This document shows, piece by piece, positions 2,890-37,421 of a DNA stretch of 40,362 nt. Source of the stretch: a phage. The translations under genes and the position numbers were made by a program. Each line of letters begins with the position of its first letter. The stretch's first letter is position 1. The stretch lies in the sequence record OZ418233.1, one strand, 5' to 3'. Under the pieces are notes generated by a model. That model was not told the DNA's origin and did no database searches. It was given only the letters and a program-made list of their open reading frames with translations.

Positions 2890-3211
2890 AACGCTGAGAG
2901 CACTTAGCCTGTTAAGGCGCCACACTTTGTCGCGGCTCCATAAATGCTCTCATCGTTGTACCCTCGTCTCTTCCGAGGCGTCACACCGAATAGCCGGGAT
3001 GGTGAATCCCCGTGCGCGGAATAAAACCGCTCGACTTGCACATTCCGGCTACCTGGTTCGTTTGCCCGAGCAAGGGAGGGTGCCCCTTAAACGTATCCAG
3101 ACCGCTATCGTCGCATGTGCCATACGCCGTACTGCTCAAAATAAAAGCTCACTCCACCTGTTCAATTTAACGACAAGCCAGTCAGGTTAGTAACCGGAAT
3201 GAGCTCTTTAG

Positions 3212-3226
3212 TTACCTGAAAGGTAA
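3212..3226. promoter_or_regulatory. palindromic operator-like motif TTACC-TGAAA-GGTAA
   Basis: Perfect TTACC-N5-GGTAA inverted repeat, about 90 bp upstream of the first virion gene; one of 12 such sites in the window. Confidence 0.55.
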
Positions 3227-3316
3227 TAATTAACGCGTTAAATGTCAACCTTCTACGATAAATAAAACATATGTGGTTAAATTGGTAATAATTTAATTGC
3301 GTACGGAGTCATTGAT

Positions 3317-3523
3317 ATGTGCATGGGTAGCTCACCATCAGTGCCTGCAACACCAGAAGTTCAGGCAGCACCACAGGAGCAGGATGCCGCCGTTGTTGAT
3401 GCCCGCGACGAAGAAACACGTCGCCGTCGCGCTGCTGCTGGTCGTAGTTCTACGCTGCTTACCGGTTCTCAGGGCGACACATCAACCGCTAATACCAGCG
3501 GTAAAACGCTGCTTGGTCAGTAA
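3317..3523 (+). CDS. small virion protein, T7 gp6.7-like (68 aa)
   Basis: Begins Met-Cys like T7 gp6.7 as I recall it; sits immediately before the portal gene; RBS GGAGT with a translation initiation region nearly identical to the portal's. Confidence 0.45.
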   Translation: MCMGSSPSVPATPEVQAAPQEQDAAVVDARDEETRRRRAAAGRSSTLLTGSQGDTSTANTSGKTLLGQ

Positions 3524-21110: not shown

Positions 21111-21134
21111 GGCCGCTTTCGCGGCCTTGTTTTT
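21111..21134 (+). terminator. intrinsic terminator
   Basis: GGCCGC-TTTC-GCGGCC hairpin followed by TTGTTTTT. Confidence 0.65.
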
Positions 21135-21294
21135 AACGAATGCCACCGCCTCCCGGGCGGGAATCCGCAGAACGCCCACCGCAGCGGGAGCCGTCAGCGG
21201 CAGTATCGCTGTCGTGCTGACAACGACCGGCAAAGGCCTGAGTTGAAGCTACCAGAGACAACAAAACGAACAGTGCAGCAAATGCTTTTTTCAT
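21133..21294 (-). CDS. small secreted/lipoprotein-like peptide (53 aa)
   Basis: Internal Met of the 77-aa ORF gives MKKAFAALFVLLSLVASTQAFAG..., a signal-peptide-like N-terminus; weak RBS; uncertain gene. Confidence 0.3.
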   Translation of the reverse strand: MKKAFAALFVLLSLVASTQAFAGRCQHDSDTAADGSRCGGRSADSRPGGGGIR

Positions 21295-21387
21295 TGTGAA
21301 ATTTCCATCTATAAGCCACCTCAATGTGGCGTCAATGAGTGTAGCACTGACTTTTGTTTCGTCCACAAAAAATCCCGCAGCGCGGGC

Positions 21388-21831
21388 TTATTCTTCTTCT
21401 TCATCATTAAAAAGCGGATTGTTGTTTCCATCTGATGAAAGGAAAGGTATGTGTTCTCTTGAAAATCCAACAATGACAATTTCATTATCATTTTTTGCAT
21501 AATGAATGCATTCATTAGAATGCATTCCGCCAGGGTTGAAATTTAAGTTAATGGTATAATTCTTAAATGTGTTTGGATACCATGTTGGCCCACAATGATA
21601 ATGCCAATAATTCTCTTGCTCATAATTGTCTGAGCCGGGAATTTTATCATGGTTATCATCAACCCACGAGGGCTTGTTTTTTCCAACAAGCGCCCTTCCA
21701 TTGGCAACATCCTCTAAAAACCTTTGTATGATTTTTATTTCATCATCAGTAAGGAAAGGTCCGTCTACAGCGAAAGGGGTGTTGCTTTCCCCATGTAGAA
21801 AACTATTAGATATTCTAATGTTAAACTTCAA
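21388..21831 (-). CDS. hypothetical acidic protein (147 aa), AT-rich
   Basis: TTG start with RBS CAGGAG 7 nt upstream; visibly low GC versus flanks; strongly acidic (poly-E C-terminus); clustered His/Cys (HYHCGP, NECIHY); no family recognised. Confidence 0.5.
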   Translation of the reverse strand: MKFNIRISNSFLHGESNTPFAVDGPFLTDDEIKIIQRFLEDVANGRALVGKNKPSWVDDNHDKIPGSDNYEQENYWHYHCGPTWYPNTFKNYTINLNFNPGGMHSNECIHYAKNDNEIVIVGFSREHIPFLSSDGNNNPLFNDEEEE

Positions 21832-21851
21832 GGAAAACTCCTGATGTGCTT

Positions 21852-22019
21852 CTATTTGGAGCGAAATGCCGCCTTGAAGTCGCTAAAAGATGTTCCTGTC
21901 TGGTAAACCATATCCTTGTCGCGCTCTTTGCTTGCGCGACCAAGCATAACTTTTCCAATGACATCCCAGCATTGCTTGGCTTGTTCATTGTGCTGAGTAC
22001 GATTTTTCAACGCTGTCAT
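21852..22019 (-). CDS. hypothetical small protein (55 aa)
   Basis: Not in the supplied ORF track (below 60 aa); found by reading the minus strand: ATG with strong RBS AAGGAGG, translation MTALKNRTQHNEQAKQCWDVIGKVMLGRASKERDKDMVYQTGTSFSDFKAAFRSK, stop 21 bp upstream of the 147-aa gene. Confidence 0.35.
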   Translation of the reverse strand: MTALKNRTQHNEQAKQCWDVIGKVMLGRASKERDKDMVYQTGTSFSDFKAAFRSK

Positions 22020-22031
22020 ATCGCGCCTCCT

Positions 22032-22046
22032 TTACCTTTAAGGTAA
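22032..22046. promoter_or_regulatory. operator-like motif TTACC-TTTAA-GGTAA
   Basis: Perfect copy of the shared palindrome, 13 bp upstream of the 55-aa gene start, directly after a -10-like TAATAT on the minus strand. Confidence 0.55.
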
Positions 22047-22112
22047 TATTACGCGAATCTACATCACATCGCCAATGATTATTTTAAAGGCACATCCCTG
22101 TGCCGCCGCCCG

Positions 22113-22799
22113 TCAGAAGAACCCTGCTTTGTCGTTGATGTACTCCGCGTGGGTCTGGATATCACGCAGGCATTTGCTCACACCAACGATGTAGCAGAAC
22201 ATGGTGGTCAGCTCCGCCGCCGCTCCCGATACGTCGTGCCCGTCGTCCTGTAACTGGTTCAGCAGATTCATCAGCAGTGAGTTCTCCGTCAGGCCGAGAA
22301 CACCAGACGGCGAATGAATCAGGCTACGGTAGCCGGGCTTCAGTGGGGCGCTGTAGGTTTTGTTCTCTATCTTCATTGCCTGCATCACTGCTGACGCCGT
22401 GGCGTTGGCTACCTGGTCGGCAACCATCTTTATGCGTTCTTCTTGCGGGAGCGAGTTTTTAATGTAACTTCCGGTGCGGCGGATCTGAGGAAGAACCTCA
22501 CCTGTAACCCATTTACGAAAGCGGTATGGGATAGTGCCTGGTGTCACCGCATCGCGGCAGCGGAGGATCAGTGTGTAGAGGCCTGACTCGTTGATAATAT
22601 TGGTTTCGCCTTGACGGCCTAAGTTAAATTTAGCCCTTTCATCATCATCAAGAGATTTTATTGACATAGTGGGGTTTGTCAGTTGAAGAGCTTTAATAAC
22701 GTCTTTGGCAACAAACCAAGGATTTCCATCAATAACAATGGCTCGAATGGTTGCTTCTGATTCAAAATGAAAAACAGATGGGGTTACGTTAGCAGTCAT
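22113..22799 (-). CDS. Bro-N domain protein (antirepressor-like), 228 aa
   Basis: From internal ATG with RBS AGGTGA: MTANVTPSVFHFESEATIRAIVIDGNPWFVAKDVIKALQL... is a Bro-N-type N-terminal domain; C-terminal about 65 aa is paralogous to the small protein at 23945-24217. Confidence 0.7.
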   Translation of the reverse strand: MTANVTPSVFHFESEATIRAIVIDGNPWFVAKDVIKALQLTNPTMSIKSLDDDERAKFNLGRQGETNIINESGLYTLILRCRDAVTPGTIPYRFRKWVTGEVLPQIRRTGSYIKNSLPQEERIKMVADQVANATASAVMQAMKIENKTYSAPLKPGYRSLIHSPSGVLGLTENSLLMNLLNQLQDDGHDVSGAAAELTTMFCYIVGVSKCLRDIQTHAEYINDKAGFF

Positions 22800-22952
22800 A
22801 GTGATCACCTTTGTAGTTAGGTTAATCACCACTACCGACGCCAATCGGTTGGTGGTGAACTGTGCAGGGTTGGCGTAACCGGCTACAAAGGACCCGGCGC
22901 ACCTTTCGGTGCCCCCACACAGCCCACCATAGAATAGGTGCGCTTTACACAT

Positions 22953-22971
22953 AAAAAAACCGCTTATGCGG
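22953..22971 (-). terminator. candidate terminator/attenuator in the leader upstream of the Bro-N gene
   Basis: On the minus strand: GCCGCATAAGCGG hairpin followed by TTTTTTTA; lies between the operator/promoter region (about 23060-23080) and the Bro-N start. Confidence 0.3.
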
Positions 22972-23065
22972 CATATGTGCCTCTGTAGTAATCCGGGACG
23001 CCAATCCCGGCACTGGATTTTGCCAGTGCCCGATTACTATGGCACAAGAGGAGTGCGATGTAAAT

Positions 23066-23080
23066 TTACCGTAAAGGTAA
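23066..23080. promoter_or_regulatory. operator-like motif TTACC-GTAAA-GGTAA
   Basis: Perfect palindrome; on the minus strand it follows a -35/-10-like pair (TTGATT, 18 bp, TATCAT). Confidence 0.55.
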
Positions 23081-23158: not shown

Positions 23159-23173
23159 TTACCTTTAAGGTAA
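23159..23173. promoter_or_regulatory. operator-like motif TTACC-TTTAA-GGTAA
   Basis: Perfect palindrome 20 bp upstream of the ATG of the 242-aa gene. Confidence 0.55.
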
Positions 23174-23193: not shown

Positions 23194-23922
23194 ATGGAAG
23201 TTTTCTGGATAGTTGTTGGTGTGGTTGCGGTGATTATTTACGTTATCAACCAGAACAAGACTAAGATCTCTGATCGTACGGTCGTTAATCATAACAAAAC
23301 GATAAAGACCGAAGATGGGGAGATAACGATTAATCGTACACAGGTGATAGAACACACCTCTACTCAGTTTCAAAAAACTGGAGGTAATGCGCCTAATATT
23401 TCCGCACCTCCTGCTTATGATAGTGCGGTAATCCAGACATATTATAAACAGCAGGAGTTAGCAAAAGAGAGGCAACTGATTCAGCCAAAGCCGTTTACAG
23501 CTGAGATTCCACCTGGAGTGTCAACGCGTCCGGCATATCATGGAAGATTCCCTGGTGATGACATATCGTCTCAGTCATCTAAAAAAGCACCTCAGGCAAT
23601 ATCAGAGCCAGCAAGAATACCTTCTGTATCGCCGCCAAAAGAAGAATCAGCTAACAGAGTTTCAAGTGGTAGCAAGCAGTGCTTGCGATGCAGAATAAAC
23701 CTTCCATATGAAAAATTCAGGAAATCGTCAAAAAATCCAGATGGATTGACTAAATGGTGTGCAAGGTGTCTCGATGGCCCAAAGAATACACGCCATATGA
23801 AGTGGTGCCCAATTTGTAATGTCCGCAGAAAACGAACCAGCTTTTACCCTAATAATCAAAATGCGGACGGCTTAATGGCATGGTGCAAAACGTGCTGGGA
23901 TGAGCACAAAGCGAAACGATAG
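23194..23922 (+). CDS. membrane-anchored protein with two CxxC zinc-ribbon-like pairs (242 aa)
   Basis: RBS GAGGAAAA; N-terminal hydrophobic helix followed by basic residues; Pro/Ser-rich linker; C-terminal C-x2-C repeats (CLRC, CARC, CPIC, CKTC). Confidence 0.55.
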   Translation: MEVFWIVVGVVAVIIYVINQNKTKISDRTVVNHNKTIKTEDGEITINRTQVIEHTSTQFQKTGGNAPNISAPPAYDSAVIQTYYKQQELAKERQLIQPKPFTAEIPPGVSTRPAYHGRFPGDDISSQSSKKAPQAISEPARIPSVSPPKEESANRVSSGSKQCLRCRINLPYEKFRKSSKNPDGLTKWCARCLDGPKNTRHMKWCPICNVRRKRTSFYPNNQNADGLMAWCKTCWDEHKAKR

Positions 23923-24279: not shown

Positions 24280-24294
24280 TTACCTAAAAGGTAA
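24280..24294. promoter_or_regulatory. operator-like motif TTACC-TAAAA-GGTAA
   Basis: Perfect palindrome in the divergent intergenic region between the small antirepressor-like gene and the tailspike gene. Confidence 0.55.
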
Positions 24295-29133: not shown

Positions 29134-29148
29134 TTACCTTAAAGGTAT
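29134..29148. promoter_or_regulatory. operator-like motif TTACC-TTAAA-GGTAT (one mismatch)
   Basis: Copy of the shared palindrome 43 bp upstream of the integrase start. Confidence 0.45.
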
Positions 29149-34215: not shown

Positions 34216-34230
34216 TTACCGTTGAGGTAA
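34216..34230. promoter_or_regulatory. operator-like motif TTACC-GTTGA-GGTAA
   Basis: Perfect palindrome at the head of the leftward early operon. Confidence 0.55.
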
Positions 34231-34277: not shown

Positions 34278-34292
34278 TTACCCGTTAGGTAA
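34278..34292. promoter_or_regulatory. operator-like motif TTACC-CGTTA-GGTAA
   Basis: Perfect palindrome 62 bp from the previous site. Confidence 0.55.
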
Positions 34293-34349: not shown

Positions 34350-34934
34350 TTATTGTTTGTTTTTTTCGTTCTGGTTGATGACAAATTCAATGTAACTTTC
34401 GATCTTTGCCTTCTCTGTTTCAGGTAGCAATGCGTAGCGCGAGCGGTCATAGTTGATAGTCGCGGGGTCGTGCGGGTGAATCAGTAATTCATATCCGTGA
34501 CGCCCAAATGCGGATGCAACATTCTCCAGGGTGGAAATGGAAACGCTGACCTCATTGTTTAACAGGCGGCTGATTGTTACCTGGGCGACGCCGGATGCGC
34601 GGTGAAGTTTTCCCTGCGTTGAAAGGTCGCGGCTTTCGCTCATCCAGCGTTCCAGGTTGTGAGCCGCCAGTTGACCAATGTCGCTTGGTCCGACAGGCTG
34701 AAAACCTTCCTGAGAAAGCGAGCGATCGATATCAAGCCAGTTACGGGGTTTATTGGCGGCAGCTTCAATTTTTCGCGCAACCTGGTCGCCGATAACCTTC
34801 TTGCCAAGAGCCCAGCGGTTTACCAGATTTGCCTGAGTTCCAAGTTTTTCAGCCATCCGCGTCTGAACACCATTGAATTCACGGTCGATCAAGTCGTTGA
34901 GATTTTGCCTGCGGACGTCCTGGATACTTTTCAT
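34350..34934 (-). CDS. prophage repressor candidate with two HTH (XRE-like) domains, no peptidase domain
   Basis: 194 aa; two HTH-like segments (…TRMAEKLGTQANLVNRWALGK… and …SGVAQVTISRLLNNEVSVSISTLENVASAFG…); divergent from a Cro-like gene with two palindromic operators between them; no Ala-Gly/Ser...Lys S24-type self-cleavage module seen. Confidence 0.55.
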   Translation of the reverse strand: MKSIQDVRRQNLNDLIDREFNGVQTRMAEKLGTQANLVNRWALGKKVIGDQVARKIEAAANKPRNWLDIDRSLSQEGFQPVGPSDIGQLAAHNLERWMSESRDLSTQGKLHRASGVAQVTISRLLNNEVSVSISTLENVASAFGRHGYELLIHPHDPATINYDRSRYALLPETEKAKIESYIEFVINQNEKNKQ

Positions 34935-34989: not shown

Positions 34990-35004
34990 TTACCCAACAG
35001 GTAA
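34990..35004. promoter_or_regulatory. operator-like motif TTACC-CAACA-GGTAA (immunity region)
   Basis: Perfect palindrome in the repressor/Cro-like divergent intergenic region. Confidence 0.6.
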
Positions 35005-35037: not shown

Positions 35038-35052
35038 TTACCTTATAGGTGA
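35038..35052. promoter_or_regulatory. operator-like motif TTACC-TTATA-GGTGA (one mismatch) overlapping a rightward promoter
   Basis: Sits between a -35-like TTGTTA (35035-35040) and a -10-like TATTAT (35058-35063, 17-bp spacing) upstream of the Cro-like gene. Confidence 0.55.
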
Positions 35053-37344: not shown

Positions 37345-37359
37345 TTACCTATTGGGTAA
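37345..37359. promoter_or_regulatory. operator-like motif TTACC-TATTG-GGTAA
   Basis: Perfect palindrome downstream of the P-like gene. Confidence 0.55.
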
Positions 37360-37406: not shown

Positions 37407-37421
37407 TTACCTAAGAGGTAA
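37407..37421. promoter_or_regulatory. operator-like motif TTACC-TAAGA-GGTAA overlapping an RBS
   Basis: Perfect palindrome ending 3 nt before ATG 37425; its right half doubles as the SD (GAGGT). Confidence 0.55.

Follow-up and report, generated by a model that had tools for sequence, protein, structure and literature searches.

The closest described relatives of the system analyzed here are toxin-antitoxin (TA) pairs and the accessory genes of temperate phages. In the YafN-YafO pair, YafN is a DNA-binding antitoxin of the Phd/YefM type. The concept of the moron comes from HK97 and lambda; morons of the classical type are expressed while the prophage is repressed. Phage T4 encodes RegB, an RNase of the early phase that uses two catalytic histidines and is structurally similar to RelE and YoeB (PMC3014915). 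Here, we describe a two-gene cassette on the minus strand (21388-22046) of a phage sequence of 40,362 nucleotides (OZ418233.1). This whole stretch, referred to as the window, corresponds to approximately an entire E. coli prophage of the phiV10/epsilon15-like type (genus Uetakevirus). The larger gene encodes a 147-aa protein which, judged by its predicted structure, is best read as an unclassified new member of the RelE/ParE structural superfamily, nearest to the mRNA-cutting branch (RelE, YafQ, YoeB, YafO). The smaller, upstream gene encodes a 55-aa protein that we best read as a candidate antitoxin or neutralizing partner. We consider it somewhat probable that the two form a TA-like RNase pair under the control of the phage repressor.

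The 147-aa protein and its upstream partner

The 55-aa gene (21852-22019, minus strand) starts with an ATG at 22019, 6 nt downstream of the ribosome-binding site (RBS) AAGGAGG (22026..22032, minus strand). After a gap of 20 nt it is followed on the same strand by the 147-aa gene (21388-21831, minus strand), whose RBS AGGAG (21838..21842, minus strand) lies 6 nt before a weak TTG start; both RBSs were read from the sequence. With the small partner upstream, the two genes share one promoter region and one intrinsic terminator, a G+C-rich hairpin with a T-run (CCCGCGCTGCGGG plus TTTTTT; 21374-21386, minus strand) that the terminator scan located directly 3' of the 147-aa stop codon. A preliminary description of this DNA, made from the letters only, had outlined a two-gene minus-strand unit with an AAGGAGG and a perfect palindrome, all of which are present. 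It had also pointed to the AT-richness of the larger gene, and the G+C (GC) profile agrees with a foreign composition: the 147-aa gene has a GC content of 35.4% (30% at third codon positions, GC3) compared with 49.2% for the window, and the 55-aa gene has 45.8%. Likewise, the large protein is acidic with a poly-Glu tail (pI 4.84, net charge about -12, tail DEEEE, 7 His and 2 Cys), and neither protein matched a family in Pfam, NCBIfam or PADLOC, searched in the case of the 147-aa protein up to an E-value of 1 in Pfam and NCBIfam. Rfam returned no family inside the cassette.

The TTG start of the 147-aa gene is credible because the first approximately 50 residues are conserved among homologs, no in-frame ATG occurs until codon 103 and the TTG persists in 14 distinct enterobacterial variants whose upstream DNA has diverged. 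In the GenBank record of phage phiv142-3 (MN187550) the gene is unannotated and only a 52-aa open reading frame (ORF) inside it is listed (L001 3440-3598); it was probably missed due to its TTG start.

In PHROGs both proteins fall into families without assigned function, phrog_5954 and, for the 55-aa protein, phrog_8607. A sequence search of the PDB yielded no relative of the 147-aa protein, PGAP names its family 'hypothetical' and our literature search found no paper on it. Its homologs comprise 36 clusters at 90% identity and 119 representatives at 50% identity, and their hosts are Enterobacterales, Pasteurellaceae, Neisseriaceae and Aeromonas, where they occur overwhelmingly on prophage or viral contigs. 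When 94 relatives were scanned against Pfam for a bridging member, no toxin family was matched, including PF13957 (YafO).

The AlphaFold2 model of the 147-aa protein, built from an alignment of 31 sequences, has a pLDDT of 90.3 and a pTM of 0.85 and contains the beta-alpha-alpha-beta-beta-beta core of the RelE/ParE fold. YafQ, RelE, YoeB and ParE head the Foldseek list, although statistically these hits are weak (E about 0.1, probability up to 0.89; target-normalized TM scores of 0.45-0.65); the best structural matches belong to the RNase branch (RelE, YafQ, YoeB, HigB). A fold search of viral structures in BFVD gave nothing significant. Compared with RelE-type toxins the protein has two insertions, at about residues 55-74 and 80-102.

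The family is marked by the motifs GKNKPSW, WHYH and IHY. Across all 94 relatives no residue other than H77, H79 and H127 is invariant; at least 90% of them retain G50, N52, K53, S55, Y78, Y111 and F130. Among the 31 close relatives, H110 is conserved to the same degree (90% or more). In the model, H77 and H79 are located on the strand formed by residues 75-79, H110 and Y111 on strand 108-113, and H127 just after strand 117-124. RNase members of the RelE/ParE superfamily carry their catalytic residues on these strands or after the last one. By position only, the conserved residues would sit where the catalytic residues of YafQ and YoeB do, with H50, H63 and H87 of YafQ as the putative counterparts. 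The modeled fold suggests that the 147-aa protein is probably a histidine-dependent endoribonuclease, with RNase activity and toxicity predicted accordingly from its kinship. We also considered the cluster of His and Cys residues as a possible metal site and rejected this reading: Cys80 and Cys108 vary in the wider family, which makes a metal cluster unlikely. The isoelectric point varies as well, with a median of 6.8, a range of 4.8-10.7 and 44 of the 94 members above 7. At the C-terminus, residues 137-147 (21388-21420) form a conserved NPLF followed by the acidic tail, and disorder is predicted for them. N138, P139 and F141 hardly vary among close relatives, and this tail may be a short docking motif.

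A profile comparison with YafO was performed using hhalign and an alignment of the TL-2011b type, the DEC9B type (both described below) and K-12 YafO. It scored 19.8-20.2 (E about 0.02, 0.024; probability 2%) and placed WHYH on the HxH of YafO and IHY on LVY, with the last strands of both also aligned. Of 200 column shuffles 5 scored as high, and the reversed control scored 8.9. Because this score is weak and none of the 94 relatives matches PF13957, we describe the 147-aa protein as RelE/YafO-like by fold, without a defined sequence family.

An upstream partner is a constant feature of the family. In about 100 loci a same-strand gene lies upstream of the 147-aa relative at a distance of -35 to +21 nt. 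These partners belong to at least five families of 55-211 aa: the 55-aa type, which includes relatives of 97-121 aa in Klebsiella lambdoid prophages, proteins of 159-194 aa in Pasteurellaceae, of 69-71 aa in Aeromonas and of 197-211 aa in Neisseria and Kingella, and one of 66 aa in an Enterobacter. An upstream partner, here of 70-106 aa, is also present in distant members of the family. One of these members, a 251-aa protein with an overlapping 70-aa partner (L234 1-3256), is encoded directly downstream of the HsdR gene of a type I restriction-modification system, a setting that is defense-island-like. This constant tight linkage and the RelE/ParE-superfamily fold found with AlphaFold and Foldseek favor the toxin/immunity pair that had been one of the functions initially considered.

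The 55-aa protein itself is basic (pI 9.8) and has 12 homologs, of which the one from Pectobacterium shares 47% identity and occupies the same position. Its AlphaFold model, of low confidence (pLDDT 71), displays a long helix and a short C-terminal helix and no DNA-binding fold. Neither the 55-aa protein nor the other partner families contain a Pfam domain or a recognizable DNA-binding domain. Partners with unrelated N-termini share a C-terminal element in which an aromatic residue is followed by a Ser/Thr-capped amphipathic helix with D/E and spaced hydrophobic residues, also written as S-x-x-D/E-hydrophobic. Examples are VYQTGTSFSDFKAAF, GYTYKSSHSFDDFKKA, DFIVDPSMSVDDILKAI, FDETHSRDDIRRMLF and YKGSFLELFNFI. 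A hidden Markov model (HMM) of this 18-residue module found most of its matches on the C-termini of unrelated partners.

Several loci show variations of this arrangement. In Canicola haemoglobinophilus (L016/L071/L073, ~3000-3423) the reading frame of the toxin-like gene is cut short by a TGA at about codon 46, with an intact 190-aa partner upstream. In lambdoid prophages of Klebsiella, the pair is located in the early nin region with terminators on both sides. The partners in Haemophilus prophages (L018-L023 and L092-L103, ~2434-2992) are about 185 aa long and start with a hydrophobic, signal- or anchor-like N-terminus (LSLNPIFESFAPIFKQLKTAAMSALFIAPLA), which is odd for a cytoplasmic antitoxin; their C-terminus is the same SFDDFKKA helix as in the 55-aa protein. 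Three frameshifted partners (P0046-P0048) were considered as cases of an intact toxin with a broken partner and discarded, as their contigs carry several single-base, mostly homopolymer, indels and the frameshifts are thus probably sequencing noise.

Operator network and the slot behind ant

Upstream of the 55-aa gene we read a putative -35 element (TTGGCG, 22070..22075, minus strand; 4/6 consensus positions) and, 18 nt from it, a putative -10 element (TAATAT, 22046..22051, minus strand). With 8/12 consensus positions this promoter is weak, and it fell below the threshold of the promoter scan and is not among its output. The TTG of the -35 element is kept in an alternative upstream version found in TL-2011b and L033 (TTGCAG), and TTG together with TAnTAT is preserved across the two diverged versions. 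The -10 element abuts the perfect palindrome TTACC-TTAAA-GGTAA (22032-22046), which spans the expected transcription start. As an RNA hairpin the palindrome was rejected, its folding being no more stable than that of shuffles (z -1.5).

A lone palindrome with arms of 5+5 nt is not significant; that at 22032-22046 is real because the motif is repeated 14 times and always between genes. TTACC-N5-GGTAA occurs in the window in 11 perfect and 3 one-mismatch copies, where 0.69 are expected, and none of 100 shuffles reached 14. The arms are invariant across copies and the 5-nt spacers vary, a pattern typical of a protein-binding site rather than an RNA stem. In several copies a -10-like hexamer ends on the T with which the palindrome begins, and at copies such as those at 34216 and 37407 a -10 hexamer likewise runs directly into TTACC. 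The cassette copy has the same layout (TTGGCG, 18 nt, TAATAT, then TACC), and hence 22032-22046 covers the expected start point.

A 194-aa cI-like repressor with an HTH_3 domain in Pfam is encoded at 34350-34934 (minus strand), with a 76-aa cro-like gene opposite. One pair of operator copies lies to the left of the repressor gene (34216-34230, 34278-34292) and another between it and the cro-like gene (34990-35004, 35038-35052). The remaining copies are found ahead of the first late gene (47-61, 65-79), the portal gene (3212-3226), the tail-fiber gene (24280-24294), the integrase gene (29134-29148) and another operon (37345-37359, 37407-37421), and between ant, the Bro-N anti-repressor gene next to the cassette, and a divergent 242-aa gene (23066-23080, 23159-23173). 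The suggestion that the palindrome is an operator of the prophage repressor is thus well supported, since pairs flank the cI-like gene and copies precede nearly all other units. TTACC-N5-GGTAA is the predicted general operator of the phage, and the cI-like protein presumably binds it in trans. The copies precede nearly every transcription unit, which suggests that a single repressor directly holds the entire genome and not just an OL/OR pair. The genome paper on epsilon15 reportedly proposed a similar hyphenated repeat as an operator. The 194-aa repressor is 100% identical to those of phiV10, phiv142-3 and vB_EcoP_ZX5. Overexpression of the ZX5 repressor lowered lysin and holin transcription by >99.9% (PMC9782041).

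The cassette occupies a polymorphic position. Its region shares 97-98.5% sequence identity with Escherichia phages HEMP4 and phiv142-3, both of which carry the cassette, and is shared in part with TL-2011b, ZX5 and phiV10. At the same slot, TL-2011b encodes a pair of 59 and 181 aa (gp45/gp44; L002 3290-3989) and E. coli DEC9B a pair of 108 and 170 aa (L106 1634-2459). The large TL-2011b protein matches PF13957 (YafO) at 26.3 bits (cut-off 25) and its DEC9B counterpart bears the RefSeq name of the YafO family. The small partners of the two pairs are strongly basic (pI 10.0 and 10.6), lack a known domain and are unrelated in sequence to the 55-aa protein. Between the ant stop codon and GGTAAA, the DEC9B sequence is identical to that of the window. 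The same stretch has diverged in TL-2011b, yet its hairpin (see below) and palindrome are kept. In both comparisons with the window homology ends directly after GGTAAA. The predicted operator therefore belongs to the slot and not to the cassette genes, because the same promoter-operator precedes unrelated pairs; its phage-wide occurrence likewise does not support a site specific to the cassette.

phiV10 has neither promoter-operator nor cassette at the slot. The full cassette was found in 77 of 5426 complete E. coli genomes, on the chromosome every time, and a further 39 of the 5426 match the query in part, most of those listed in the ant-proximal 80 nt only. A Pectobacterium prophage of the same type carries a pair of 56 and 148 aa following its Bro-N gene and preceded by TTACC-ATTAA-GGTAA; the remaining intergenic DNA does not align. 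This presence and absence at a fixed position among close relatives, together with the deviating GC content (35% vs 49%), is what characterizes a moron, and the cassette is best read as a swappable accessory unit of the phiV10/epsilon15-like prophage.

In other phage backgrounds different palindromes are found at the same place, between an extended -10 element (TGTATACT) and the RBS of the partner, before diverged partner genes: ATCACCA-N-TGGTGAT in L054/L055/L058 (~2784) and ATCGC-N4-GCGAT in L056/L057 (~2777/1517). No clear second copy of either was found within these loci of 2.5-6.4 kb, and they could be the operator of the resident phage or a partner-specific site. A scan of viral contigs for ATCACCANTGGTGAT returned scattered single sites only and was uninformative, as target contigs of the L054 type were not among them.

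The cassette is located between ant (22113-22952 as ORF; GC 50.8%) and a small secreted-protein gene, and both of these come just after the genes for the large virion and injection proteins. Directly 3' of the ant stop codon we read a hairpin, GGCAC-N6-GTGCC followed by TTTAAAAT (22089..22104, minus strand), that is kept in TL-2011b and DEC9B. It is absent from the list of the terminator scan and is possibly a weak terminator between ant and the cassette. On the other side, the 53-aa secreted protein (21133-21294, minus strand; phrog_14503, 'membrane associated protein') has a Sec-type signal peptide (MKKAFAALFVLLSLVASTQAFA followed by G). Its gene has a good promoter of its own (TTGACG-16-TATAGA) and no operator copy, and is therefore probably a moron expressed in the lysogen.

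Around the start of the ant ORF, Rfam matched C4 antisense RNA (79.5 bits), isrK (76.8 bits) and, slightly below the gathering score of 46.7, the c4-a1b1 target (45.1 bits). The three matches are located upstream of the ORF start or overlap it (22848-22934, 22953-23029 and 22990-23042, all minus strand). The control of ant thus looks like that by a P1/P7-type immI antisense RNA, and the true start of ant is probably near 22799, downstream of C4. The 242-aa protein (phrog_6762; 23194-23922, plus strand), whose gene is divergent from ant with operator copies on its flanks, contains repeated CxxC zinc-ribbon units in its C-terminal half with weak matches to Stc1, endonuclease VII, HNH and Lar-like restriction-alleviation families.

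Proposed mechanism and alternative explanations

Under the favored reading of a TA-like RNase pair, the weak promoter, overlapped by the master operator, would give rise to a bicistronic message ending at the terminator. The partner would be made in excess, as it has an ATG and a strong RBS and the toxin-like gene a TTG, and would neutralize the endoribonuclease, probably by binding via its C-terminal helix. With the cI-like repressor presumably on the operator, the unit would be largely off in the lysogen, a prediction made because the operator covers the start site. It would be switched on upon entry into a repressor-free cell, upon induction or when the repressor is inactivated. Two details fit a TA balance: the start signals just mentioned, with the TTG being conserved, and the stop codon in the toxin-like gene of Canicola next to an intact partner. 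By analogy, the nin-region position in Klebsiella lambdoid prophages would fit early lytic expression. The biological pay-off could be abortive infection or exclusion by leaky or de-repressed expression, a RegB-like shut-off of the host or of mRNA during lytic growth, or selfish persistence.

Several observations weigh against this reading. The 147-aa protein has no profile membership in any toxin family of Pfam, NCBIfam or PADLOC, and its link to YafO, judged from sequence profiles, is weak (p about 0.02-0.03). Since no DNA-binding domain is seen in the partner, it departs in one respect from classical type II antitoxins. No match of the C-terminal module HMM was significant, with all E-values above 0.3 for a motif that is too short, so that a docking helix shared by the partners is at present a reasoned inference from their sequences. 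Finally, a TA pair that is off in the lysogen would not fit the usual logic of addiction or abortive infection. The combination of an acidic large and a basic small protein does not speak against the reading, because the phage YafO pairs in the slot share this charge pattern.

Among the alternatives, the one that survives best, though we think it unlikely, is that the 147-aa protein is a developmental RNase in the manner of T4 RegB. It would destroy the function of mRNAs of the host or of early phage genes in the course of lytic growth, with the 55-aa protein as a modulator or specificity factor. The RelE-like fold with its invariant histidines would suit such an enzyme, as would the operator placement, which predicts expression only after infection or induction, the early nin-region position of the Klebsiella pair and the precedent of RegB itself (PMC3014915). 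However, the 147-aa family has an upstream partner in every locus where this could be read, the slot holds YafO-type TA cassettes in sister phages, and the cassette is dispensable, since phiV10 lacks it. RegB is not known to have an inhibitor partner.

It is less likely still that the palindrome is an autoregulatory operator of the cassette, bound by the 55-aa protein or the pair rather than by the phage repressor. The position exactly between the -10 element and the RBS, and the different perfect palindromes without a clear second copy in the L054-L058 backgrounds, would be explained by this. The 14 copies in the window, near almost every promoter region and around the cI-like gene, are not, nor is the identical promoter-operator before unrelated partners in TL-2011b and DEC9B with homology ending after GGTAAA, and the 55-aa protein has no DNA-binding domain.

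We consider it very improbable that the large protein is a non-nucleolytic member of the RelE/ParE fold with an inhibitor, for example a ParE-like gyrase poison or a non-cleaving ribosome binder, as its best fold matches are in the RNase branch and the invariance of three histidines would be difficult to account for in a protein that is not catalytic. The least tenable proposal, that of an acidic protein made early to mimic DNA or to counter host restriction or defense in some other way, as envisaged in the preliminary description, appealed to the acidity and poly-Glu tail of the E. coli protein, its predicted early expression and the lack of a known family, but it loses its basis because acidity varies across the family, and it is contradicted by an RNase-toxin fold unlike any known mimic, by conserved His, Lys, Tyr, Asn and Ser positions resembling an enzyme active site and by an obligatory upstream partner, which is not typical of known mimics.

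Returning to the TA-like pair, a tentative extension, which we hold to be rather unlikely, treats the locus downstream of ant as a repressor-gated 'toxin socket'. Its fixed promoter and master operator would receive alternative RelE/YafO-type pairs without autoregulation, here of an unrecognized HxH-type family, whose partners of different origin would all dock by a common C-terminal helix. If this were true, toxin expression would be tied to loss of the repressor, be it by induction, entry into a naive cell or the anti-repressor of a superinfecting phage. The pair would then be an induction-linked device for the shut-off of host or competitor or for suicide and not a classical self-regulated TA system.

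The analysis provides a fold and a testable mechanism for a protein family left blank by annotation. If the favored reading holds, the family would be a new branch of RelE/YafO toxins with a partner built unlike known antitoxins. Since the toxin-like pairs are exchanged directly behind the master operator in this common group of E. coli prophages, their expression is predicted to be linked to the lysis-lysogeny switch; such wiring is unusual for TA systems and bears on prophage competition or host shut-off. Moreover, the copies mapped here likely make up the full set of operators in phiV10-like phages, a group employed as reporter phages and in the typing of E. coli O157.

Comparison with known systems

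As with the operator sites reported for epsilon15 and the stoperators bound by gp71 of mycobacteriophage L5, one short motif is placed at many transcription units throughout the genome. The many gp71 sites of L5 are asymmetric and orientation-dependent, whereas the predicted sites of the present phage are symmetric palindromes of 15-17 bp at promoters.

With the solved pairs RelE-RelB, YafQ-DinJ, YoeB-YefM and HigB-HigA the cassette shares an antitoxin-first operon and conserved basic and His/Tyr residues on one face of the sheet. It differs in several respects. The 147-aa protein is longer than the solved RelE/ParE toxins (about 85-95 aa), with its two insertions and the NPLF-acidic tail, and has no sequence-level relation to them. 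Its partner has neither a ribbon-helix-helix or helix-turn-helix nor a Phd domain, and control is predicted to be exerted via a phage operator and not by the pair itself. Measured against type II TA systems in general, the adjacent, co-oriented genes with an upstream partner and the recognized toxin fold are in place. A DNA-binding, autoregulating antitoxin was not found, as the 55-aa protein has no such domain and the operator is phage-wide and common to unrelated cassettes.

T4 RegB resembles the 147-aa protein in being phage-encoded, in its size of about 150 aa, in a RelE/YoeB-like fold with histidines and in its early expression, which is predicted for the cassette. It is not among the structural matches of the 147-aa model and comes from a virulent phage where it is not part of a swappable cassette. 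Nevertheless, RegB is a precedent for a phage that uses the RelE fold within its own program.

Like the morons of temperate phages, the cassette is an extra unit of deviating composition, variably present at one position and with a terminator directly after it. In contrast to classical morons, it has a phage operator over its start site and is thus predicted to be expressed during lytic growth or upon entry.

Close to the cassette, too, are YafN-YafO and the phage YafO pairs of TL-2011b and DEC9B, which likewise consist of two genes with the small partner upstream. The sequences of the 147-aa relatives remain outside PF13957 and the partners are unrelated; the 55-aa protein also lacks the Phd/YefM-type domain of YafN. 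On the other hand, YafO-type toxins are also larger than RelE (132-181 aa) and near-neutral or acidic. The partners of the phage YafO pairs are basic like the 55-aa protein, unlike the acidic YafN of K-12 (pI 5.5). In the weakly scoring hhalign comparison, an HxH on a core strand, a following h-h-Y strand and a C-terminal His line up. The phage YafO pairs occupy the exact same slot behind the same promoter-operator. Overall, the cassette is best read as a new family within a well-known type of module, a RelE/YafO-like pair in a repressor-gated moron slot.

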